A stretch of 25,384 nucleotides of DNA from a virus (Duplodnaviria; Heunggongvirae; Uroviricota; Caudoviricetes). Position numbers and translations under genes: made by a program. Numbering within the stretch: position 1 is the stretch's first letter; every line of letters starts with the position of its first letter. Shown here one piece after another: positions 1-25,384 of the stretch. The notes below the pieces were generated by a model, which saw only the letters and a program-made list of their open reading frames with translations, did no database searches and had not been told where the DNA came from. The stretch lies in IMG/VR virus record IMGVR_UViG_2585427773_000007. One strand, given 5' to 3'.

Positions 1-1572
1 TTACTGAGAGCTCAGATCAACTTTCCAGGGCAACAGATCGCGTACCCGGTTTGCCGGCCAGTCCTGGATATGTTCAATGACGTAACGCAGCCACTTTTCT
101 GGCTCCACATTGTTCAGACGGCATGTGCCGATCAGCGAGTACAACACCGCCGCATGTTCACCACCGCTGTCGGAACCCGCGAACATCCAGTTTTTCCGGC
201 CTACGGCCACTCCCCGTAAGGCGTTCTCTGCGATGTTGTTGTCGATTTCCACCCAGCCATTACTGCAGTACACGTTCAGTGCATCCCACTGTTTCAGCAG
301 GTATGCGAACGCTTTTGCCGTATCTGAGTGACGCGACAGTGTTTTCATCTGTTGCTGTATCCAGTCATACAGTGACTGCATCAGTGGCGCGGCTCTGGCT
401 TTTCTTGCCGCCAGACGCTGTTCTGCTGAACAGCCCCGGACCTCTGCCTCGATGGCATACAGTTCACCGATACGCTGCAGGGCTTCCGTGGTGATGTAGG
501 TGGGCGCTCTTGCATGCACATCGTGGATTTTTCTCCGGGCATGAGCCATACACGCGACTTCCGTTATTCTGCCGGATTCGTATAACGCCCGGTAACCACC
601 GTAAGCATCGGCCTGAAGCACACCGCTGTAACCGGCCAGGTGATTTTGTGGATGGATACCTTTCCGGTCCGGACTGTACGCGAACCAGACCGCCGGGGGC
701 ATCTGTGAACCGGCGTTACGGTCATCACGGACGTAGACCCACAGCCGGGCTGTCCGGGTTTTACCGCTGCCCGGCTCCTGGACCGGGACGGGGATATCAT
801 CAGCATGGACTTTACCGGGCATCAGCACATACTGGCGCAGGACGTCATACAGCGGCTCCAGCAGTTCAGCAACAGCACCTGTCCAGCGCCCCAGTGTGGC
901 ACGGCTCAGCTCCACTCCCTGACGACGGTATATTTCTGACTGGCGGTATAACGGCAGATGGTCTGCATATTTCCCGGTGACAACATGGGCCAGAAGCCCC
1001 GCTCCGGCATAACTGCGTGCAATGGGTTTTGAAGGTACTGGTGCCTGCACGATATGGTCGCACCGGCAACAGGCCTGTTTCGGACGTTGTGTTTCGATAA
1101 CCTTAAAGGCGCTGCTGATAAGCTCCAGTTGCTCTGACACATCACATCCCAGAGAACTGAGTTCACCACCACAGGCAGGACAGCATTCCTCTTCCGGCCG
1201 GATAACCCGGGTTTCACGGGGAAGTGAGGCCGGTAACGGTTTACGGGCTGAAGACTGGCGCAGGGCGGATGGCAGTACCGGGTCATATTGCTCACCCAGC
1301 GTTTCCGCCATTTCTTCCTGAAGTGCGCTGATTCGCTCCTGTGCTTCCTGTATCTGCCGTTCGGTTTTTGCACGAAGTTTTTCTGAGCTTTTACCGAACT
1401 GCATACGTTGCAGTTTCGCAACCAGCGCCTTCAGCCGGTTGATTTCGGAAGCATAAGCCGCCACCCGCTGTGAGAGCAGGCGGTTGTATTCAGCCATCTG
1501 GCGGATGGTGTCCTGTTGCGTCTGCAACAGTGCCCGCAGGCGGGCGTTCTCATGAGCAAGTGAGGTGTCCAT
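1..1572 (-). CDS. tnpC: IS66-family transposase (TnpC/Orf3), 523 aa
   Basis: N-terminal coiled-coil/leucine-zipper-like region (LRALLQ...LKALVAKL), paired Cys motifs CCPACGG and CCRCDH (zinc ribbon), and a long C-terminal catalytic region typical of IS66 transposases. Confidence 0.9.
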
Positions 1573-1591
1573 ATCCTCACTTTACAACGGG

Positions 1592-1939
1592 TTATATGCG
1601 GATTCCAGCGCGTTCCGTTCGTTTCGGGTGCTTCCAGTTGATACCTTCAAGAAGCATGGATAACTGAGCCGGAGTAAGGTGCACCTTGCCGTCACGGGTG
1701 ACTGGCCAGACGAAGCGGCCCCGCTCCAGGCGTTTGGTGAAGAGGCACAGTCCGTCACTGTCAGCCCACAACACTTTTATCTGGTCACCCCGGCGTCCGC
1801 GGAAGATGAACAGGTGTCCGGAGAACGGGTCATCCTTCAGGACGTTCTGAACTTTTGATGCCAGGCCGTTAAAGCCATTTCGCATATCGGTGATACCTGC
1901 AACCAGCCAGATACGCGAACCTGCAGGGAGAGATATCAT
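1592..1939 (-). CDS. tnpB: IS66-family accessory protein TnpB (Orf2), 115 aa
   Basis: Size and sequence (ITDMRNGFNGLA...) typical of IS66 Orf2, sitting between tnpA and tnpC. Confidence 0.88.
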   Translation of the reverse strand: MISLPAGSRIWLVAGITDMRNGFNGLASKVQNVLKDDPFSGHLFIFRGRRGDQIKVLWADSDGLCLFTKRLERGRFVWPVTRDGKVHLTPAQLSMLLEGINWKHPKRTERAGIRI

Positions 1940-2616
1940 CAGTGGCTGCTCCCTTTTATTTCGCGGATAAGTGTCTGTAATAACGCCGGCGTCAGTTTAC
2001 CTTTAAGCCTGAGAGTTCCGGCCGGCAGAACCAGCTCACAACACAGACTGTCGGACGGTGTATTTATCTGCTCTGGTTCCTGTGCGGGGGCCGGGATTTT
2101 ATTATCCGGCTCCGGCGTTAACGTCACGGGAAGCAGTGCCGGCATATTTTTTCCGGAAGGCAGCAGGCCACCTTTCCGGTATTGATGGCGCCAGTTGAAG
2201 AGCAGGTTATCGTTGATTCCGTTTTCCCGGGCGATCTGCGCCACACAGGCTCCGGGCTGCAGTGACTGCTCCACTAAGGCGATTTTAAACTCATAAGGGA
2301 AGTTGGGCCGCCGGGGACGTTTTTTTACCACGGGGGCTTCGGATATAACGGTGCTTTCAGGACGTACGACTGGTACCGTGGAAAATTGTCCGTAAAGGCA
2401 GGCATCAAGTTCCTGCTCCGACATGCCTGCGGGCAAAGGCCACGAAAGGCCAGCTCTCCGAAAGCGCACGAACATACTACAAACTGTTGATTTTGGTACA
2501 CCCAGGCGACGCCCGGCCACAACCCGGGGTAAATGTTCTTCAAAGTGAAGACGTAAAGCTTCAGTGATCCAGGTCCGGTGTTTCATACGATAGTGTCCAT
2601 TAAAAATGATGGACAT
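1939..2616 (-). CDS. tnpA: IS66-family TnpA-like protein (Orf1) with helix-turn-helix; 225-aa ORF, true start may be internal
   Basis: HTH-like segment (PGACVAQIARENGINDNLLFNWRHQYRKG) resembling IS3/IS66 OrfA DNA-binding domains. The ORF is longer than a typical IS66 Orf1, so the start codon is uncertain. Confidence 0.7.
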   Translation of the reverse strand: MSIIFNGHYRMKHRTWITEALRLHFEEHLPRVVAGRRLGVPKSTVCSMFVRFRRAGLSWPLPAGMSEQELDACLYGQFSTVPVVRPESTVISEAPVVKKRPRRPNFPYEFKIALVEQSLQPGACVAQIARENGINDNLLFNWRHQYRKGGLLPSGKNMPALLPVTLTPEPDNKIPAPAQEPEQINTPSDSLCCELVLPAGTLRLKGKLTPALLQTLIREIKGSSH

Positions 2617-2649
2617 TATTTTTGTAGAGCCGGAGGAAACAGACCAGAC

Positions 2650-5255
<2,606 letters not shown>

Positions 5256-5275
<20 letters not shown>

Positions 5276-6575
5276 TCTCCCGCATATTGCCAGCATGGCC
5301 TTTAATGAGCCGCTGATGCTTGAACCCGCCTATGCGCGGGTTTTCTTTTGTGCGCTAGCAGGCCAGCTTGGGATCAGCCGCCTGACAGATGCGGTGTCCG
5401 GTGACAGCCTGACTGCCCCGGAGACACCCGCGACGCTGGCGTTATCCGGTGATGATGACGGACCACGACAGGCCCGCAGTTATCAGGTCATGAACGGCAT
5501 CGCCGTGCTGCCGGTTTCCGGCACGCTGGTCAACCGGACGCGGGCGCTGCAGCCGCATTCGGGGATGACCGGTTACAACGGCATTATCGCCCGTCTGCAA
5601 CAGGCTGCCAGCGATCCGATGGTGGACGGCATTCTGCTCGATATGGACACGCCCGGCGGGATGGTGGCGGGGGCATTTGACTGCGCTGACATCATCGCCC
5701 GTGTGCGTGACATAAAACCGGTATGGGCGCTGGCCAACGACATGAACTGCAGTGCAGGTCAGCTGCTTGCCAGTGCCGCCTCCCGGCGTCTGGTCACGCA
5801 GACCGCCCGGACAGGCTCCATCGGCGTCATGATGGCTCACAGTAATTACGGCGCTGCGCTGGAGAAACAGGGCGTGGAAATCACGCTGATTTACAGCGGC
5901 AGCCATAAGGTGGATGGCAACCCCTACAGCCATCTACCGGATGATGTCCGGGAAACACTGCAGTCCCGGATGGATGCAACTCGCCGGATGTTTGCACAGA
6001 AGGTATCGGCATATACCGGCCTGTCCGTGCAGGCTGTGCTGGATACCGAGGCTGCAGTGTACAGCGGTCAGGAGGCCATTGATGCCGGACTGGCTGATGA
6101 ACTTGTTAACAGTACCGATGCGATCACCGTCATGCGTGATGCACTGGATACACGTAAATCCCGTCTCTCAGGAGGGCGAATGACCAAAGAGACTCAATCA
6201 ACAACTGTTTCAGCCACTGCTTCGCAGGCTGACGTTACTGGCGTGGTGCAAGCGACGGAGGGCAAAAACGCCAGCGCGGCGCAGCCGGATGTGAACGCGC
6301 AGATCACCGCAGCGGTTGCGGCAGAAAACAGCCGCATTATGGGGATCCTCAACTGTGAGGAGGCTCACGGACGCGAAGAACAGGCACGCGTGCTGGCCGA
6401 AACCCCCGGTATGACCGTGGAAACGGCCCGCCGCATTCTGGCAGCTGCACCACAGAGTGCACAGGCGCGCAGTGACACTGCGCTGGATCGTCTGATGCAG
6501 GGGGCACCGGCACCGCTGGCTGCAGGTAACCCGGCATCTGATGCCGTTAACGATTTGCTGAACACACCAGTGTAA
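5256..6575 (+). CDS. C: Head maturation protease / ClpP-like gpC, 439 aa from a GTG start
   Basis: GTG at 5256 preceded by AGGAGG (5244-5249) gives MTAELRNLPHIASMAF..., the lambda C N-terminus. The longer 5142 ORF start is upstream read-through overlapping B. Confidence 0.88.
5970..6575 (+). CDS. nu3: Scaffolding protein Nu3, translated in-frame from an internal start within C
   Basis: In-frame ATG at 5970 (MDATRRMFAQKVSAYTGL...) corresponds to the lambda Nu3 start; this nested-gene arrangement is established for lambda. Confidence 0.7.
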   Translation: MDATRRMFAQKVSAYTGLSVQAVLDTEAAVYSGQEAIDAGLADELVNSTDAITVMRDALDTRKSRLSGGRMTKETQSTTVSATASQADVTGVVQATEGKNASAAQPDVNAQITAAVAAENSRIMGILNCEEAHGREEQARVLAETPGMTVETARRILAAAPQSAQARSDTALDRLMQGAPAPLAAGNPASDAVNDLLNTPV

Positions 6576-6584
6576 GGGATGTTT

Positions 6585-6917
6585 ATGACGAGCAAAGAAA
6601 CCTTTACCCATTACCAGCCGCTGGGCAACAGTGACCCGGCACATACGGCAACCGCGCCCGGCGGATTGAGTGCGAAAGCGCCTGCAATGACCCCGCTGAT
6701 GCTGGACACCTCCACCCGTAAGCTGGTTGTGTGGGATGGCACCACCGACGGTGCTGCCGTTGGCATTCTGGCGGTTGCTGCTGACCAGACCAGCACCACG
6801 CTGACGTTCTACAAGTCCGGCACGTTCCGTTATGAGGATGTGCTCTGGCCGGAGGCTGCCAGCGACGAGACGAAAAAACGGACCGCGTTTGCCGGAACGG
6901 CAATCAGCATCGTTTAA
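6585..6917 (+). CDS. D: Head decoration protein gpD, 110 aa
   Basis: [27 protein letters not shown]... matches lambda D; the start is taken at the second ATG of the ORF. Confidence 0.9.
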
Positions 6918-16340: not shown

Positions 16341-19300
16341 ATGGGTAAAGGCAGCAGTAAGGGGCATACCCCGCGCGAAGCGAAGGACAACCTGAAGTCC
16401 ACGCAGCTGCTGAGTGTGATCGATGCCATCAGCGAAGGGCCGGTTGAAGGTCCGGTGGACGGATTAAAAAGCGTGCTGCTGAACAGTACGCCGGTGCTGG
16501 ACAGTGAGGGGAATACCAATATATCCGGCGTCACGGTGGTGTTCCGGGCCGGTGAGCAGGAGCAGACACCGCCGGAGGGATTTGAATCCTCCGGCTCCGA
16601 GACGGTGCTGGGTACAGAAGTGAAATATGACACGCCGATCACCCGGACCATCACGTCGGCAAACATTGACCGTCTGCGTTTTACTTTCGGTGTACAGGCA
16701 CTGGTGGAAACCACCTCAAAGGGGGACAGGAATCCATCGGAAGTCCGCCTGCTGGTTCAGATACAGCGTAATGGTGGCTGGGTGACGGAAAAAGACATCA
16801 CCATTAAGGGTAAAACCACCTCACAGTATCTGGCCTCGGTGGTGGTGGATAACCTGCCGCCGCGCCCGTTCAATATCCGGATGCGCAGGATGACGCCGGA
16901 CAGCACCACAGACCAGCTGCAGAACAAAACGCTCTGGTCGTCATACACCGAAATTATCGATGTGAAACAGTGCTACCCGAACACGGCACTGATCGGCGTG
17001 CAGGTGGACTCGGAGCAGTTCGGCAGCCAGCAGGTGAGCCGTAATTATCATCTTCGCGGGCGCATTCTGCAGGTGCCGTCGAACTATAACCCGCAGACGC
17101 GGCAATACAGTGGTATCTGGGACGGAACGTTTAAACCAGCATACAGCAACAACATGGCCTGGTGTCTGTGGGATATGCTGACCCACCCGCGCTACGGCAT
17201 GGGAAAACGTCTTGGTGCGGCGGATGTGGATAAATGGGCGCTGTATGTCATCGGCCAGTACTGCGACCAGTCAGTGCCGGACGGCTTTGGCGGCACGGAG
17301 CCGCGCATCACCTGTAATGCGTACCTGACCACACAGCGCAAGGCGTGGGATGTGCTCAGTGATTTCTGCTCGGCGATGCGCTGTATGCCGGTATGGAACG
17401 GGCAGACGCTGACGTTCGTGCAGGACCGACCGTCGGATAAGGTGTGGGCCTATAACCGCAGTAATGTGGTGATGCCGGATGATGGCGCGCCGTTCCGCTA
17501 CAGTTTCAGCGCCCTGAAAGACCGCCATAATGCCGTTGAGGTGAACTGGATTGACCCGAACAACGGCTGGGAGACGGCGACAGAGCTTGTTGAAGATACG
17601 CAGGCCATTGCCCGTTACGGTCGTAACGTCACGAAGATGGATGCCTTTGGCTGTACCAGCCGGGGGCAGGCGCACCGCGCCGGGCTGTGGCTGATTAAAA
17701 CGGAACTGCTGGAAACGCAGACCGTGGACTTCAGCGTGGGTGCCGAAGGGCTTCGCCATGTGCCGGGGGATGTCATTGAAATCTGCGATGATGACTATGC
17801 GGGTATCAGCACCGGCGGGCGCGTGCTGGCGGGGAACAGCCAGACCCGGACGCTGACGCTCGACCGTGAAATCACGCTGCCATCCTCCGGTACCACGCTG
17901 ATAAGCCTGGTTGACGGTCAGGGTAATCCGGTCAGCGTGGAGGTCCAGTCCGTCACCGACGGCGTGAAGGTAAAAGTTAGCCGTGTTCCTGACGGCGTTG
18001 CCGGATACAGCGTGTGGGGGCTGAAGCTGCCGACGCTGCGCCAGCGCCTGTTCCGCTGCGTGAGTATCCGTGAGAACGACGACGGTATGTATGCCATCAC
18101 CGCCGTGCAGCATGTACCGGAAAAAGAGGCCATCGTGGATAACGGGGCGCACTTTGACGGCGACCAGAGCGGCACGGTGAATGGTGTCACGCCGCCAGCG
18201 GTGCAGCACCTGACTGCCGAAGTCACCGCAGGCAGCGGGGAATATCAGGTGCTGGCGCGCTGGGACACGCCGAAGGTGGTGAAGGGCGTGAGCTTCCTGC
18301 TCCGTCTGACCGTAACAGCGGATGACGGCAGTGAGCGGCTGGTCAGCACGGCCCGGACGACGGAAACCACATACCGCTTCACGCAACTGGCGCTGGGGAA
18401 CTACAGGCTGACAGTCCGGGCGGTAAATGCGTGGGGGCAGCAGGGCGATCCGGCGTCGGTATCGTTCCGGATTGCCGCACCGGCAGCACCGTCGAAGATT
18501 GAGCTGACACCGGGCTATTTTCAGATAACCGCCACGCCGCATCTTGCGGTTTATGATCCGACGGTACAGTTTGAGTTCTGGTTCTCGGAAAAGCGGATTG
18601 CGGATATCAGGCAGGTTGAAACCAGCGCGCGTTATCTTGGTACGGCACTGTACTGGATAGCCGCCAGTATCAATATCAAACCGGGCCATGATTATTACTT
18701 TTATATCCGCAGTGTGAACACCGTTGGCAAATCGGCATTCGTGGAGGCTGTCGGTCGGGCGAGCGATGATGCGGAAGGTTACCTGGATTTTTTCAAAGGC
18801 GAGATAACCGAATCCCATCTTGGCAAGAAGCTGCTGGAAAAAGTCGAGCTGACGGAGGATAACGCCAGCAGACTGGAGGAGTTTTCGAAAGAGTGGAAAG
18901 ACGCCAACGATAAATGGAATGCCATGTGGGGCGTCAAAATTGAGCAGACCGAAGACGGCAAACATTATGTCGCGGGTATTGGCCTCAGTATGGAGGACAC
19001 GGAGGAAGGCAAACTGAGTCAGTTTCTGGTTGCAGCAGACAGGATTGCGATGATTAATCCTGCGAATGGCAACACAAAGCCGATGTTTGTTGGTCAGGGC
19101 GATCAGATATTCATGAATGAAGTGTTCCTGAAACGCCTGACGGCCCCCACCATTACCAGCGGCGGTAATCCTCCGGCATTTTCCCTGACATCAGACGGGA
19201 GACTGACGGCGAAAAATGCGGATATCAGTGGCAGTGTGAATGCGAACTCAGGAACGCTCAACAATGTCACGATTAACCAGAACTGTACGATTAAGGGCAT

Positions 19301-19754
19301 GCTGGAGGCGACCCAGGTCAGAGGGGATTTCGTTAAAGCTGTATCAAAAGCCTTCCCGAAAAAAGTCGGTACGTGGGGTAACACGGAAACACCAAACGGT
19401 ACGGTTACAGTCACCATCAGCGATGATCATAACTTTGACCGCCAGATTATTATTCCGCCCATTATTTTTAACGGTATAGCGTATGACGATCCGGGGAGCG
19501 GAAATAACCCAGGAGGCACGCGATACACGGGTTATGGTTTTGAAGTTCGCAAAAACGGCGTATTAATCGCATCCAGAGAAACTAAAGGGGCCATTCCCGG
19601 TAGTTACAGTGCAGTTATTGATATGCCGAGTGGCAGGGGAAGCGTCACTCTGGAGTTTAAGATTTTCCAGAAAGGCAATCAGGGGGCAGGCAATATCACC
19701 GACTGTACGGTGATTGTGACCAAAAAAGCCGCTTCCGGCATCAGTATTCGTTGA
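16341..19754 (+). CDS. J: Central tail fibre / host specificity protein gpJ, 1137 aa
   Basis: Size, position and N-terminus match lambda J; GAGGA RBS 6 nt upstream. Confidence 0.93.
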
Positions 19755-19824: not shown

Positions 19825-20424
19825 ATGCGTAAAGTTTGTGCAGCAATTTTGTCCGCAGCCATTTGTCTGGCCGTATCCGGTGCGCCTGCATGGGCGTCTG
19901 AACATCAGTCCACGCTGAGCGCGGGGTATCTTCATGCCTCGACGAACGTCCCCGGCAGTGATGATCTGAACGGGATTAACGTGAAATACCGTTATGAGTT
20001 TACGGACACACTGGGGCTGGTGACGTCATTCAGCTATGCAGGAGACAAGAATCGCCAGCTGACCCGTTACAGCGATACCCGCTGGCATGAAGATTCCGTT
20101 CGTAACCGCTGGTTCAGCGTAATGGCGGGGCCGTCTGTGCGCGTGAATGAATGGTTCAGCGCGTATGCGATGGCGGGTGTAGCTTACAGCCGTGTGTCGA
20201 CTTTCTCCGGGGATTATCTTCGCGTAACTGACAACAAGGGGAAAACGCACGATGTGCTGACCGGAAGTGATGACGGTCGCCACAGCAACACGTCTCTGGC
20301 GTGGGGGGCTGGCGTGCAGTTTAACCCGACCGAATCCGTGGCCATTGATATTGCTTATGAAGGCTCCGGCAGTGGTGACTGGCGCACTGACGGTTTCATC
20401 GTGGGTGTCGGTTATAAATTCTGA
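19825..20424 (+). CDS. lom: Lom outer-membrane beta-barrel protein (Ail/Lom/PagC family), 199 aa with signal peptide
   Basis: N-terminal signal peptide (MRKVCAAILSAAICLAVSGAPAWA), C-terminal aromatic residue (...GVGYKF) and alternating beta-strand pattern; lambda lom position between J and stf. Confidence 0.88.
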   Translation: MRKVCAAILSAAICLAVSGAPAWASEHQSTLSAGYLHASTNVPGSDDLNGINVKYRYEFTDTLGLVTSFSYAGDKNRQLTRYSDTRWHEDSVRNRWFSVMAGPSVRVNEWFSAYAMAGVAYSRVSTFSGDYLRVTDNKGKTHDVLTGSDDGRHSNTSLAWGAGVQFNPTESVAIDIAYEGSGSGDWRTDGFIVGVGYKF

Positions 20425-20450
20425 TTAGCCAGGTAACACAGTGTTATGAC

Positions 20451-20477
20451 AGCCCGCCGGTTCAGGCGGGCTTTTTT
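20451..20477 (+). terminator. Rho-independent terminator after lom
   Basis: AGCCCGCC-GGTTCAG-GCGGGCT followed by TTTTTT. Confidence 0.6.
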
Positions 20478-20488
20478 GTGGGGTGAAT

Positions 20489-23326
20489 ATGGCAGTAAAG
20501 ATTTCAGGTGTACTGAAAGACGGCACAGGAAAACCGGTACAGAACTGCACAATCCAGCTGAAAGCAAAACGTAACAGCACCACGGTGGTGGTGAACACGC
20601 TGGCCTCAGAAAATCCGGATGAAGCCGGGCGTTACAGCATGGACGTTGAGTACGGGCAGTACAGCGTTATTCTGTTGGTGGAGGGATTCCCGCCGTCACA
20701 TGCCGGGACCATCACCGTGTATGAAGATTCCCGGCCCGGTACGCTGAATGATTTTCTCGGTGCCATGACGGAGGATGATGCCCGTCCGGAGGCACTGCGC
20801 CGTTTTGAGCTGATGGTGGAAGAGGTGGCGCGTAACGCGTCCGCGGTGGCACAGAACACGGCAGCCGCGAAGAAGTCAGCCAGCGATGCCAGCACATCAG
20901 CCCGTGAGGCGGCAACCCATGCGACTGATGCTGCAGGCTCAGCACGCGCAGCCAGCACGTCAGCCGGACAGGCCGCGTCGTCGGCTCAGTCAGCGTCTTC
21001 CAGCGCAGGAACGGCATCGACAAAGGCCCGTGAAGCAGCAAAAAGTGCTGCTGCTGCAGAGTCCTCAAAAAGCGCGGCAACTACCAGTGCCGGTGCGGCG
21101 AAAACGTCAGAAACGAATGCGGCAGCGTCACAACAATCAGCAGCCACTTCTGCATCCGCCGCGACCACGAAGGCGTCAGAAGCAGCCACCTCAGCCCGGG
21201 ATGCGGCGGCCTCAAAAGAGGCAGCGAAATCATCAGAAACGAACGCATCATCAAGCGCCAGTAGTGCCGCTTCCTCGGCAACGGCGGCAGGCAATTCCGC
21301 GAAGGCGGCAAAGACGTCTGAGACAAACGCCAGGTCTTCTGAAACGGCAGCGGGACAGAGCGCCTCGGCTGCGGCAGGCTCAAAAACAGCGGCTGCGTCG
21401 TCTGCCAGCGCCGCGTCAACAAGTGCCGGGCAGGCCTCAGCCAGTGCCACCGCCGCCGGAAAATCGGCAGAAAGCGCCGCATCATCCGCTTCAACAGCCA
21501 CAACGAAGGCTGGCGAAGCCACTGAGCAGGCCAGCGCAGCAGCGAGGTCAGCTTCCGCAGCGAAGACATCCGAAACGAACGCGAAAGCGTCGGAAACCAG
21601 CGCAGAATCCTCAAAAACGGCTGCCGCATCGTCAGCCAGTTCGGCGTCGTCATCGGCCTCATCGGCGTCTGCTTCAAAAGATGAGGCGACCAGACAAGCG
21701 TCAGCAGCGAAGGGCAGCGCCACGACGGCATCCACGAAGGCAACAGAGGCTGCTGGCAGTGCGACGGCGGCATCTCAGAGCAAAGTTGCTGCTGAATCCG
21801 CGGCAACGCGTGCCGAAACAGCGGCAAAACGGGCAGAGGATATTGCTGATGCCGTATCTCTGGAAGATGCGAGTACGACGAAAAAAGGTGTGGTTCAGCT
21901 CAGTAGCGCCACTAACAGCCCGTCTGAAACGCTGGCTGCGACACCAAAAGCGGTTAAGGCGGTAATGGATGAAACGAACAAGAAAGCGCCCTTAAATAGT
22001 CCTGCACTGACCGGAACGCCAACAACGCCAACTGCGCCAAAAGGTACTAATAATACTCAGATCGCAAGTACGGCTTATGTGATGGCCGCGATTGCCGCCC
22101 TTGTAGACTCGTCGCCTGACGCACTGAATACGCTGAACGAGTTAGCGGCGGCGCTGGGCAACGACCCGAATTTTGCGACCACCATGACTAACGCGCTTGC
22201 GGGTAAGCAACCGAAAGATGCCACCCTGACGGCGCTGGCCGGGCTTGCTACTGCGGCAGACAGGTTTCCGTATTTTACGGGGAATGATGTCGCCAGCCTG
22301 GCAACCCTGACAAAAGTCGGGCGGGATATTCTTGCGAAATCGACCGTTGCTGCCGTTATCGAATACCTCGGTTTACAGGAAACGGTAAATCAGGCTTCTG
22401 GCGCATTACAGAAAAACCAGAACGGCGCAGATATTCCGGGAAAAGATACCTTCACCAAAAACATTGGTGCCTGCCGCGCATATAGCGCATGGCTGAATAT
22501 TGGTGGCGATAGTCAGGTCTGGACAACTGCGCAATTTATTTCGTGGCTGGAGAGTCAGGGGGCATTTAACCATCCTTACTGGATGTGCAAAGGCTCATGG
22601 GCTTATGCAAATAATAAGGTTATTACAGATACAGGTTGCGGAAATATTTGTCTTGCAGGTGCTGTGGTGGAAGTTATTGGCACTCGCGGCGCAATGACCA
22701 TACGCGTTACTACGCCGAGCACGTCCAGCGGTGGCGGAATTACTAACGCTCAATTCACTTATATTAATCATGGTGATGCTTACGCTCCTGGCTGGCGACG
22801 AGACTACAACACGAAAAACCAGCAGCCTGCATTTGCTTTAGGGCAAACAGGACGCAGGGTCGCAAATGATAAAGCTGTTGGCTGGAACTGGAATAGCGGT
22901 GTTTATGATGCAGATATCAGTGGTGCATCGACATTAATCCTCCACTTCAATATGAATGCGGGGAGTTGCCCTGCTGTACAGTTCCGCGTGAATTACAGGA
23001 ACGGCGGGATTTTTTATCGTTCAGCGCGTGATGGTTATGGCTTTGAAGCTAACTGGTCAGAGTTTTACACCACAACACGCAAACCCTCTGCGGGGGATGT
23101 TGGTGCATATACGCAGGCAGAATGTAACTCAAGGTTTATTACAGGTATTCGCCTTGGCGGTCTGTCATCTGTTCAGACATGGAAAGGCCCCGGCTGGTCT
23201 GACAGGTCAGGTTATGTCGTTACGGGTTCAGTTAACGGAAACCGTGCTGAATTAATTGATACAACTCAGGCAAGGCCAATTCAGTATTGCATTAATGGGA
23301 CGTGGTATAACGCGGGGAGTATTTAA
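20489..23326 (+). CDS. stf: Side tail fibre protein Stf, 945 aa from ATG 20489: lambda-Stf-like N-terminus with an Ala/Ser-rich tract, then a Mu S / P1 S-like variable C-terminal domain
   Basis: MAVKISGVLKDGTGKPVQNCTIQLKA... matches the lambda Stf N-terminus; a gix-like site sits in-frame at 22356-22383; the C-terminus ends ...INGTWYNAGSI, mirrored by the inverted alternative exon. Confidence 0.88.
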   Translation: MAVKISGVLKDGTGKPVQNCTIQLKAKRNSTTVVVNTLASENPDEAGRYSMDVEYGQYSVILLVEGFPPSHAGTITVYEDSRPGTLNDFLGAMTEDDARPEALRRFELMVEEVARNASAVAQNTAAAKKSASDASTSAREAATHATDAAGSARAASTSAGQAASSAQSASSSAGTASTKAREAAKSAAAAESSKSAATTSAGAAKTSETNAAASQQSAATSASAATTKASEAATSARDAAASKEAAKSSETNASSSASSAASSATAAGNSAKAAKTSETNARSSETAAGQSASAAAGSKTAAASSASAASTSAGQASASATAAGKSAESAASSASTATTKAGEATEQASAAARSASAAKTSETNAKASETSAESSKTAAASSASSASSSASSASASKDEATRQASAAKGSATTASTKATEAAGSATAASQSKVAAESAATRAETAAKRAEDIADAVSLEDASTTKKGVVQLSSATNSPSETLAATPKAVKAVMDETNKKAPLNSPALTGTPTTPTAPKGTNNTQIASTAYVMAAIAALVDSSPDALNTLNELAAALGNDPNFATTMTNALAGKQPKDATLTALAGLATAADRFPYFTGNDVASLATLTKVGRDILAKSTVAAVIEYLGLQETVNQASGALQKNQNGADIPGKDTFTKNIGACRAYSAWLNIGGDSQVWTTAQFISWLESQGAFNHPYWMCKGSWAYANNKVITDTGCGNICLAGAVVEVIGTRGAMTIRVTTPSTSSGGGITNAQFTYINHGDAYAPGWRRDYNTKNQQPAFALGQTGRRVANDKAVGWNWNSGVYDADISGASTLILHFNMNAGSCPAVQFRVNYRNGGIFYRSARDGYGFEANWSEFYTTTRKPSAGDVGAYTQAECNSRFITGIRLGGLSSVQTWKGPGWSDRSGYVVTGSVNGNRAELIDTTQARPIQYCINGTWYNAGSI
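20850..21850 (+). repeat. Low-complexity Ala/Ser/Thr-rich coding repeat tract within stf (iterated ...AAKTSETNA... / ...SASSAS... units)
   Basis: GC-rich GCN/TCN codon repeats visible in the translation; they leave two other frames stop-free (spurious ORFs 20886-21965 +, 20986-21735 -, 21081-21827 -). Confidence 0.8.
22356..22383 (+). other. Candidate gix/pix-type recombination (crossover) site for a serine DNA invertase, embedded in stf at the constant/variable junction
   Basis: TTATCGAATACCTCGGTTTACAGGAAAC differs at only about 2 of 28 positions from the Mu gixL sequence as I recall it, has imperfect dyad symmetry around the central TC, and encodes the ...IEYLGLQE... junction. Confidence 0.6.
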
Positions 23327-23328
23327 CG

Positions 23329-23862
23329 ATGATGCACTTAAAAAACATTACTGCTGGCAACCCTAAAACAAAAGAGCAATACCAGCTAACAAAGCAATTT
23401 AACATCAAATGGCTTTATTCAGATGATGGAAAAAACTGGTATGAGGAACAAAAGAATTTCCAGCCAGACACTTTGAAAATGGTCTATGACCATAACGGCG
23501 TTATTATTTGTATTGAAAAGGATGTTTCAGCAATTAATCCAGAGGGTGCAAGCGTCGTTGAATTACCTGATATTACAGCAAATCGCCGGGCTGATATTTC
23601 GGGGAAATGGATGTTCAAAGATGGCGTAGTGATAAAGCGAACTTATACCGAGGAAGAGCAGAGGCAACAAGCGGAAAATGAAAAGCAAAGCCTGTTGCAA
23701 CTTGTCAGGGATAAAACCCAGCTATGGGACTCACAGCTACGGCTGGGCATCATTTCCGACGAGAATAAACAAAAATTAACCGAGTGGATGCTCTATGCGC
23801 AGAAAGTCGAATCTACAGACACTTCCGGCCTGCCAGTAACGTTTCCCGAACAACCAGAATGA
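23329..23862 (+). CDS. tfa: Tail fibre assembly protein Tfa (Mu U-like), 177 aa
   Basis: Starts 3 nt after the stf stop; about 55% identical to the inverted paralogue at 23891-24418 (shared [28 protein letters not shown] motifs). Confidence 0.85.
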   Translation: MMHLKNITAGNPKTKEQYQLTKQFNIKWLYSDDGKNWYEEQKNFQPDTLKMVYDHNGVIICIEKDVSAINPEGASVVELPDITANRRADISGKWMFKDGVVIKRTYTEEEQRQQAENEKQSLLQLVRDKTQLWDSQLRLGIISDENKQKLTEWMLYAQKVESTDTSGLPVTFPEQPE

Positions 23863-23865
23863 GAG

Positions 23866-23892
23866 AAGGCCCGCTATCGGGCCTTAATTTTT
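23866..23892. terminator. Hairpin between the convergent tfa genes, with a T-run on the + strand
   Basis: AAGGCCCG-CTAT-CGGGCCTT followed by AATTTTT. Confidence 0.5.
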
Positions 23893-24418
23893 ACTCTGGT
23901 TTTTGTGGCCATTCAGGATTTGCCGTATCCACACGGCTGACCAGAACACTGTAGCGTTCCCATGCTTCCAGTCGTGTGCGTTCCTCGTCTGTTGCCATAT
24001 TCAGCCTGACAGCGCGTTCCAGCGGTTGGATGACTGATTCAGCTTCGGAAAGCAATGCGGCCTTTTGTGATTCGGCCTGTTGTTGTTGCTCGTCTGCCGT
24101 ATAAATCCGTTTAACCACAGCTCCGTCCCTAAACATCCACTTACCGGAATCATCAGCGCAGCGGTTGGCTGTAATATCTGGAACCTCAACGACGCTATAA
24201 CCTTCAGGGTTAAGCGTGGAGGCATCTTTGGTGATGGCGACAATAATATTATTTGCATCGTAAACAATCTTTATTGTGTCTGGCTGAAAGTTTTTCACTT
24301 CCTCATACCAGTTTTTTCCGTCTTCGGACCATAACCAGATAACATCAAAATTCTTTGTTAGCTGATATTGTTCTTTTGTTTTTGGATTTCCAGACTTAAT
24401 ATTTTTTAAATGCTGCAT
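23891..24418 (-). CDS. Alternative tail fibre assembly protein Tfa-prime (Mu U-prime-like), 175 aa, inverted orientation
   Basis: Paralogue of the + strand tfa in convergent orientation; positioned directly downstream (on the - strand) of the inverted alternative fibre exon. Confidence 0.85.
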
Positions 24419-24421
24419 AAA

Positions 24422-25384
24422 TTACACCTGTACGACGTTATACCATGTGCCATTGATGTATTTTTGTATTGGTCTGAATACTGCCGGATCATCGCCATCA
24501 ACTGCACCGATAATGCCAAGCCCCGTAATTGCATGACCTGATTTCTCATACATCACGCCTTTTTGCATAGTCTGAACAACACGTGTACCAAGTCGGACAT
24601 CTCTCACATAACGTGAGTCAAAATTACCATAATTGCCGGGAATAACTTGCGCACCGCAAAGCCAGTTGCCATTGTTGTCCATGTACGCCTGACCATCGGT
24701 GCCATTGGCTGTCCTTGAGTTATTAATCATGTAGATGCCAAATTGCTTATTCCCCAGTCCACCAATCATAAATTTGCGATCAGCGTGGTCCTGACGAAGT
24801 AATGCCTGCGCACCATCGGTGGATACCGCATTGCGTCCCAAAATAACATTCTGGTCACGCATATGAATCCACATGCCGGTACTACTGTTAATTGCAAAAC
24901 GGTTTGCAAATATATCCCCTGTAACATCAAGACCATGCCCCATGCTTATCCGACCAGTTCTGAGATTAAGCGTAAAGGGGCGTAGTGGCCCTATATCACC
25001 ATTTTCTCCCTCATTCTCTCGTGTAGGGATGATATGCAGGCATTCTTCAGAACGACGAAAAATAGCACCAAAAGATGAATTAAATATCCTCAGTGCATTG
25101 ACTGTCGATATTTTTACTTCACTGCTGAAAAGGGCTTTAACAAGGACAGACAAAGCATCCCATTTAAGAGTCATCAGGTCTTTTGTTGTGGTGCTCTGGC
25201 GGCTTCTCCATTTGAAATATTCATTGCCGTTGTCGCCTGTTTCAAACCACATGTATGAATCAGTGTCGCTGTCGGCATTATTTTTAAAACCAATCTTTGC
25301 CCAGTCAGTATTTCTAATCCAGGCAAGGATTGAGTCGTTTTCAAAAGTAAGCCCACCGGACAAGGTATCGCCATTCTTTTGCAC
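24422..25384 (-). CDS. Alternative side-tail-fibre variable C-terminal exon (Sv-prime-like), partial; runs off the 3' window edge and has no start codon in this orientation
   Basis: At least 320 codons on the - strand ending ...PIQKYINGTWYNVVQV, parallel to the stf C-terminus ...PIQYCINGTWYNAGSI. The M at the window edge is an artefact (the codon is GTG). Confidence 0.78.
   Translation of the reverse strand: MQKNGDTLSGGLTFENDSILAWIRNTDWAKIGFKNNADSDTDSYMWFETGDNGNEYFKWRSRQSTTTKDLMTLKWDALSVLVKALFSSEVKISTVNALRIFNSSFGAIFRRSEECLHIIPTRENEGENGDIGPLRPFTLNLRTGRISMGHGLDVTGDIFANRFAINSSTGMWIHMRDQNVILGRNAVSTDGAQALLRQDHADRKFMIGGLGNKQFGIYMINNSRTANGTDGQAYMDNNGNWLCGAQVIPGNYGNFDSRYVRDVRLGTRVVQTMQKGVMYEKSGHAITGLGIIGAVDGDDPAVFRPIQKYINGTWYNVVQV

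Follow-up and report, generated by a model that had tools for sequence, protein, structure and literature searches.

The window analysed here (IMG/VR record IMGVR_UViG_2585427773_000007, the whole stretch of 25,384 nucleotides, nt) consists of late-region sequence from a lambda-like prophage, whose side tail fibre gene, stf, carries an invertible cassette homologous to the G segment of phage Mu. We propose, with a probability of roughly 75%, that this is an orphan Mu-type G segment in a lambda-like stf, in which the adjoining invertase gene, gin, has decayed and the segment is still inverted in trans. A first-pass annotation of the DNA had described, in this order, a constant part of stf, a crossover-like site, a variable C-terminus, the chaperone gene tfa, and an inverted tfa paralogue followed by an inverted fibre exon, and had likened the whole to the invertible Mu G, P1 C and e14 P segments. 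All of these components are found where it had placed them, and the relationship to Mu G goes beyond shared architecture to homology at the nucleotide level (87.5% identity).

Structure of the cassette and its homology to Mu G

The window and its relatives were compared by BLAST and by anchored comparisons, owing to insertions and deletions (indels) in gene J. Sequence beyond the window end was read in relatives identical to the window end. Window positions 22000–25384 are 100% identical to three complete Escherichia coli genomes, STEC309, 101EVA and fS58a; the STEC309 locus is referred to as L001, and its coordinates equal the window coordinate minus 13999. Contigs encoding exactly the same 945-amino-acid (aa) Stf are 97.9–99.9% identical to the window, and when a near-whole-window query was run against complete E. 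coli genomes the top matches covered 90–95% of it. The parts of the cassette are as follows.

20483–23326, plus strand: stf, 947 aa, with the Pfam domain phage_tail_N at aa 3–136
20483–22367, plus strand: constant part of stf (N-terminus and shaft), ending at the crossover dinucleotide and common to the 947-aa Stf and the 961-aa Stf'
22356–22383, plus strand: left crossover site of 28 nt, TTATCGAATACCTCGGTTTACAGGAAAC, present as a single copy in the window
22356–22381, plus strand: left gix-type 26-mer, TTATCGAATACC-TC-GGTTTACAGGAA, with the central TC at 22368–22369
22368–25384 in the window: invertible segment, 3055 bp in total, with its final 38 bp past the window end (to window-equivalent 25422)
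22370–23326, plus strand: expressed variable C-terminus of Stf, of the Mu S' (G(-)) type
23329–23862, plus strand: tfa, chaperone of the expressed tip, of the Mu U' type, 177 aa, Pfam Caudo_TAP
23866–23885 (L001 9867–9886), plus strand: GC-rich hairpin followed by a T-run, terminator-like by consensus scan only, between the convergent tfa genes
23891–24418, minus strand: tfa', silent alternative chaperone, of the Mu U type, 175 aa, Pfam Caudo_TAP
24422–25384, minus strand: silent alternative fibre C-terminal exon, of the Mu S (G(+)) type, running off the window with 38 nt more to the crossover point

The start of stf called by the Prokaryotic Genome Annotation Pipeline (PGAP) is the ATG at 20489, which gives the 945-aa form. 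The tfa' and tfa products are paralogues that are 57% identical. Scans for promoters and terminators showed no enrichment over shuffled sequence, and Tandem Repeats Finder reported no tandem arrays in 20400–25384. We note that the Ala/Ser/Thr-rich central part of Stf (window 20700–21970) contains long spurious open reading frames (ORFs), for example at 20886–21965 on the plus strand and at 20986–21735 and 21081–21827 on the minus strand.

Comparison of the cassette with the Mu G segment by BLAST shows 87.5% nucleotide identity over 3114 nt, with segment lengths of 3055 and 3059 bp, and the cassette lies inverted relative to the G(+) Mu GenBank record. The Mu U and U' genes, of 528 and 534 nt, have the same sizes as the two tfa genes in the window. 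At the protein level the expressed variable part matches Mu S' (95.4% over 323 aa), the 177-aa Tfa matches Mu U' (97.2%), the silent 175-aa Tfa' matches Mu U (93.7%), and the silent exon matches residues 171–504 of Mu S (70.2%). The best PDB sequence match to the expressed tip is 8ju3_A, 'Tail fiber protein S,S'' (E = 6.7e-214), and the top matches to Tfa' and to the silent exon are 5yvq_B (E = 1.5e-107) and 5yvq_A (E = 5e-140), respectively. Within a phage collection the segment occurs at 88–94% identity in Mu, D108, SfMu, P1, P7, D6 and the P2-like P88. On the strength of these alignments we regard window 22356–25384 as a true homologue of the Mu G segment set in a lambda-type stf, and its present state as the counterpart, by analogy, of Mu G(-). 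Mu G(+) particles infect E. coli K-12, and the hosts of the G(-) form are E. coli C, Citrobacter freundii, Shigella sonnei, Enterobacter, Serratia and Erwinia (PMC4406740); by extrapolation from Mu, the two tips of the lambda-type side fibre may likewise differ in receptor specificity.

The left site is not expected by chance, with 0 of 100 shuffles matching its 28 nt at three or fewer mismatches. Between its 26-mer and Mu gix (TTATCCAAAACCTCGGTTTACAGGAA; gixL) 2 of 26 positions differ, and these lie in the outer half-site. An inverted copy had been predicted 0.1–1.5 kb past the 3' end, and one is indeed present, albeit not at that distance: the 28-mer begins 23 nt past the window end with two mismatches (L001), and the 26-mer form, TTCCTGTAAACCGAGGTTTTAGATAA, begins 25 nt past it in relatives. 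This right site is present in L001 and in all ten contigs encoding the exact 945-aa Stf. In L001 the two sites lie within a 38-nt inverted repeat that is 92% complementary; both have the central TC/GA, and they are 1–2 nt off Mu gix, in the outer halves only.

In relatives that continue past the window, the silent minus-strand frame is closed by a TAA within the outer half of the right site, and no start codon lies between this TAA and the crossover point. The inverted exon thus has no start codon of its own, as had been claimed, and the GTG 'start' of the minus-strand fibre ORF at 25384 merely reflects where the window was cut. When the segment of 3055 bp that lies between the central TC and the central GA is flipped in silico in L001 (8369–11423, from which the limits of the segment were set), the constant part joins the silent exon in frame to give a 961-aa protein, which has ...AAVIEYLGLQETVN in common with the 947-aa form. 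Naturally flipped loci have intact fused ORFs of 959–1003 aa, and both alternative ORFs are intact in 10 of the 10 loci examined. With this fusion, and with the complete E. coli genomes described below in which the flipped form is found at full length, the earlier proposal that inversion exchanges both the Stf C-terminus and its chaperone is borne out.

PGAP annotates the fused stf in the flipped loci L005 (1491–3881), L006 (1491–3881) and L011 (1491–2987) as a pseudogene 'missing C-terminus', and places a further short 'tail fiber protein' on the exon that is now silent. We considered whether stf is disrupted in these three loci and rejected this, since translation yields intact ORFs (one intact 959-aa ORF). 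'Pseudogene' calls on the silent exon and the fused stf are artefacts of an overlooked inversion.

Loss of the adjoining invertase in close relatives and occurrence of both orientations

An invertase gene of about 180–200 aa had been expected downstream, and this expectation failed: close relatives have a stub of 64 codons past the right site, with the exception of a single contig, L023, considered below. In STEC309 and 101EVA the stub is annotated as a 'recombinase family protein', is 95% identical to Gin residues 1–64 and keeps Ser9. A TGA stands at codon 65 and is followed by about 14 pinE-like codons and then by a C-terminal fragment of tfa.

L001 11490–11816 (window-equivalent 25489–25815, outside the window): mosaic of gin remnant and tfa fragment

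The remnant matches positions 2–73 of the 145 in Pfam Resolvase and has no helix-turn-helix (HTH) domain; in the intact 195-aa homologue of a P2-like prophage the Resolvase and HTH domains are both present. With its own invertase dead, the cassette cannot flip itself and depends on an invertase encoded elsewhere. A contiguous alignment spans the deletion junction in 28 of 28 unflipped and 15 of 15 flipped complete-genome records with a cassette at least 99% identical, and the same stop context is seen in nine of the ten contigs encoding the exact 945-aa Stf. The identical junction between gin stub and tfa occurs at three chromosomal sites, attLambda/bio, prfC and Rac, which indicates that cassette and stub moved between lambdoid prophages as a unit. 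The first-pass annotation had also named what would speak for an independent minus-strand fibre gene, namely neither an inverted site nor an invertase gene downstream, together with a minus-strand fibre ORF running on to its own start; none of this is seen in the relatives.

About 190 nt of the 5' end of gin are kept in the remnant, and over nt 1–110 the remnants, the P2-like copy and Mu share 100% identity. Kahmann et al. reportedly located the Fis-dependent recombinational enhancer of Mu within the invertase gene in 1985. For Hin, a distance of about 100 bp separates the enhancer from hix, and the paper describing this cites Kahmann et al. 1985 (Mu Gin) for an enhancer that acts at a distance through DNA looping (PMC3798978).

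Flipped copies were sought with a query made of the in-silico flipped construct, the stub and the downstream flank. A genome of the opposite orientation covers at most 78% of this query, and the full-length, single-piece matches at 99.8–100% identity that were obtained in complete genomes are therefore genuine flipped copies. Complete-genome records with the orphan cassette (at least 99% identical) comprise 28 in the unflipped and 15 in the flipped orientation; for all cassettes at 80% query coverage or more, the records number 100 unflipped and 76 flipped. Both orientations are found in each of four contexts.

Lambda-like prophage beside bio (attLambda): unflipped in L001 and L004, flipped in L005 and L006
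attLambda prophage stub with the stf N-terminus deleted: unflipped in L008, flipped in L007
Prophage near prfC: unflipped in L010, flipped in L009
Rac locus: unflipped in L012, flipped in L011

The 3055-bp segments were compared after their orientation had been normalised. Within the prfC pair, within the Rac pair, and between L007 (flipped) and L001 (unflipped), the two orientations have 0 differences; between contexts there are 2–5 single-nucleotide polymorphisms (SNPs) per segment and 4–5 in the 370-nt right flank. Because flipped and unflipped haplotypes are identical, orientation is independent of haplotype, and because both orientations carry the same invertase deletion junction, the inversions postdate the decay. 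This implies at least three independent inversions after gin was destroyed. The outer half-sites are unmoved in both orientations at 10 loci, so that the breakpoints fall inside the 25-nt identical core that holds the gix centre.

Two other origins for the flipped copies were considered and rejected. Import from P2-like or Mu-like cassettes does not account for them, as they are 99.8–100% identical to the unflipped orphan compared with 93–96% for the donors, and the spread of one inversion by recombination in the flanks is unparsimonious, since each context has its own SNP haplotype in both orientations.

The prophage stubs L007 and L008 (E. coli Z0117EC0098, EC20-4B-2; locus 1–6700) are heavily deleted attLambda remnants whose segment is 0–1 nt different. 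In them an stf lacking its N-terminus abuts DUF1398/ynfO/nohD and an inverted terminase fragment, and the cassette is kept. Differences in orientation are also seen among cassettes that have an intact invertase. The chromosome of E. coli E110019 carries a flipped copy and a separate 25-kb record an unflipped one (NZ_CP035751.1, NZ_CP035755.1), and the near-clonal 2022S01-140-18 (NZ_CM125663.1) and 2022S01-140 (NZ_CM125670.1), of 4.94 Mb, differ here in orientation only, according to hit tables. These differences are consistent with ongoing switching of the intact-invertase copies.

Proposed inversion in trans and alternative explanations

A mechanism can be put forward for the cassette. The late-operon transcript would cross the gix-type site from the stf constant part into whichever variable exon faces it and on into the matching chaperone gene, and in the G(-)-like orientation of the window this would yield an S'-type tip, with a U'-type chaperone to fold it. 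The 3055 bp would flip when the two inverted 26-bp sites are cut in staggered fashion and exchanged at their central TC/GA, giving the same N-terminus with an S-type tip and placing the U-type chaperone gene downstream. The cassette's own Gin-type invertase would have been lost through the stop at codon 65 and the replacement of its 3' part by the tfa fragment, and the retained stub of about 190 nt from the 5' end of gin is, by its position in Mu, the putative enhancer region. Candidate drivers in trans are the Din-family enzymes of co-resident elements, that is PinE of e14, PinR or PinQ, and the Gin or Pin of Mu-, P1- or P2-like prophages.

Candidates of this kind are found in the genomes concerned. 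STEC309 carries an intact pinE on an e14-like element that also has a P segment of its own, and at the Rac locus the gin stub has an intact pinR about 100 nt away. Adding pinE and pinR to the query raises the number of matching places in 11 of the 14 flipped genomes, by a crude count per record, and a gin/pin homologue is detectable by blastn in at least 69% of complete E. coli genomes. PinE was first identified as complementing Mu gin, inverting G (van de Putte et al. 1984, via PMC12529663). A 2025 paper reports that PinQ of Qin inverts the e14 P segment in trans and that both P orientations occur among deposited genomes (PMC12529663). We infer that resident Pin-type invertases, acting in trans, are the most likely agents of the inversions that followed the decay.

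Several observations weigh against this reading or narrow it. The window stops before the right site, and the state of its own invertase is thus strongly suggested by its relatives rather than read directly; moreover, one of the ten exact-Stf contigs, L023, has an intact 195-aa recombinase. The flipped PEC1003 (NZ_CP160643.1, L006) has no megablast-level gin, pinE or pinR elsewhere, and in this strain the flipped state was either inherited or produced by an invertase that is more distant or was present only transiently. The orientation data come from comparison between genomes. The silent tip is just 70% identical to Mu S, and specificities based on Mu are an extrapolation. Finally, the terminase gene of the window copy is interrupted by an IS66-family element; the switch in this copy may be without consequence for virions, and the host-range switching that had been suggested may be moot for it.

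The contig L023 (GCA_045075905.1 DBBXYB010000002.1, 6001–14838) has a lambda-type J and lom upstream of the cassette and the recombinase, P2 GpU and a tape-measure gene downstream. It could be a lambda-like/P2-like chimera joined at the cassette, either through a real inter-prophage rearrangement via the shared segment or as an artefact of assembly.

If an intact Gin- or Pin-type invertase followed the right site in the window's source, the cassette would be an autonomous switch that flips as Mu G does. The window ends short of the right site, intact invertases do stand beside related cassettes (195 aa in the P2-like L002 and 184 aa in the N15-like L014), and an intact invertase also follows the cassette in L023, which encodes the identical 945-aa Stf. 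However, the truncated remnant is carried by 43 of the 43 complete-genome records with a cassette at least 99% identical and by nine of the ten exact-Stf contigs, whereas cassettes with intact invertases are just 93–96% identical to the window, and the lambda-type/P2-type join of L023 may reflect rearrangement or misassembly; we consider an autonomous switch quite improbable. The same dead invertase would suit a frozen relic, a segment that no longer inverts and whose two orientations are leftovers of old events, as would the flipped PEC1003 with no detectable pinE, pinR or gin-type gene and the between-genome rather than within-culture nature of the orientation evidence. This explanation is unlikely, as the same deletion junction in both orientations places the inversions after the decay, and the 0 differences over 3055 bp in three comparisons of flipped with unflipped copies point to recent and repeated events. 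Furthermore, the stub with the deleted stf N-terminus is found in both orientations, and trans-inversion by Pin-family enzymes is experimentally documented (PMC12529663).

Instead of a site-specific invertase, homologous recombination that depends on RecA and joins the short inverted repeats might have produced the inversions. The arms have a 25-nt identical core in the 38-nt repeat, near the minimum length for homologous recombination, and the sequence data alone are compatible with either mechanism. Nevertheless, at least three independent events in about 40 near-identical copies, 35% of which are flipped, are far above expectation for 25 nt; the breakpoints fall on the canonical gix site, a longer inverted repeat between tfa and tfa' (161 nt, 75% identical) shows no recombinants, and gix-acting invertases are present in the same genomes. 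Recombination through RecA is accordingly a highly improbable source of the flipped copies.

To return to the orphan segment inverted in trans, its cassette and gin stub, with the putative enhancer region in cis, might not simply be decaying but have been kept at several chromosomal sites, in lambdoid prophages and prophage stubs, as a host-level phase-variable module that is flipped by resident Pin-type invertases, although we regard this as distinctly doubtful. One possible role of such a module is that alternative Stf tips or chaperones hinder the adsorption of other phages, which has been reported for PinQ/StfE2 in e14; another is that of a recombination reservoir of fibre tips. The survival of the cassette in both orientations in the prophage stub without the stf N-terminus, the intact ORFs in 10 of 10 loci and the identical junction are compatible with a host-level module, although recency explains them equally well.

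For annotation, the consequence is that this family of lambdoid prophages has coding sequence for two alternative tips of the side tail fibre. How G inversion works has been in the textbooks since the 1980s, and little is added to that mechanism here; the only fresh element is an orphaned cassette that is still polymorphic in orientation. It would represent a natural case of a site-specific inversion module that has no recombinase of its own and yet still switches, with its behaviour set by co-resident prophages, and it fits the recent report that the Pin invertase of one cryptic prophage acts on another.

The prophage, its setting and comparison with known systems

The window runs through the late region of the prophage from terminase to J, lom, stf and tfa. 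At its start an IS66-family element on the minus strand (window 1–2616) breaks the lambda-type large terminase gene.

4–1572, minus strand: IS66-family DDE transposase, 523 aa
1595–1939, minus strand: IS66 Orf2-like ORF, within the IS66-family element
1942–2616, minus strand: HTH ORF, within the IS66-family element
2578–3474: leftover of the large terminase gene, nuclease-domain part only

The match of relatives to the window begins only at position 2286. As a result of the element in the terminase gene, this copy of the prophage is probably defective in packaging. The closest complete-genome relatives are integrated beside bio (attLambda). The tail-tip gene J (window 16341–19754) encodes 1137 aa, compared with 1165 aa in STEC309 and 101EVA, the closest complete genomes; the 1137-aa J is also found in contig L018, and indels in J separate the window from L001 and from L015–L024. 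By sequence, then, the central-fibre specificity module also varies among prophages that are otherwise near-identical. We note that outside the window, at L001 11890–13221, a 443-aa diguanylate cyclase (MASE4-GGDEF) is encoded between ybhB-bioA and the fibre cassette, the position of the b region in lambda. It looks like prophage cargo beside the attachment site.

The gene order is the same as in the G/Gin system of Mu (also D108 and SfMu), which is arranged Sc-gix-Sv-U / U'-S'v-gix-gin. The identities of the S', U', U and S counterparts in the window to those of Mu (95/97/94/70%) resemble the pattern described for SfMu (96/97/90/65%; PMC4406740). Unlike Mu, in which the constant part is a 170-aa myovirus Sc, the cassette described here has a 625-aa lambda-type Stf N-terminus (phage_tail_N) of the siphovirus type, and of its gin only a 64-codon stub is left, joined to a fragment of tfa. 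The C segments of P1 and P7 belong to the same S/U cassette family, with 89–93% nucleotide identity over about 3 kb, and likewise combine a constant fibre N-terminus with invertible tips. In P1, however, the C segment is 4.2 kb long (PMC12529663), and an intact Cin adjoins it.

The P segment and PinE of e14 in K-12 also form an invertible fibre and chaperone cassette within a defective prophage, for which both orientations have been deposited. It too is inverted in trans by an invertase of another prophage, as documented for e14 (PMC12529663) and as we propose for the orphan cassette, for which PinE, present in STEC309, is a likely driver. The e14 P segment differs in being 1.8 kb long, in its sites (AAACCTTGGTTTGGGAGAA, with a central AA) and in its fibre sequences, and e14 retains its own intact pinE.

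Copies of the cassette itself are found in two further kinds of element. In P2-like prophages (E. coli O145 RM12275-C1) it is 95.9% identical and has the same two sites, but it comes with an intact invertase of its own, of 195 aa and with 86% identity to Gin. The N15-like phage-plasmid pZ1323HEC0355-3 (L014), a 45.9-kb element with protelomerase, SopAB, RepA and lambda-type head and tail genes, has a cassette that is 93% identical and shares the constant part of Stf. In contrast to the window's relatives it has an intact invertase, of 184 aa and 56% identical to Gin. With these intact invertases the P2-like and N15-like copies are self-sufficient, and on sequence comparison the Din-family invertase that partners the cassette evidently differs from one element to another.

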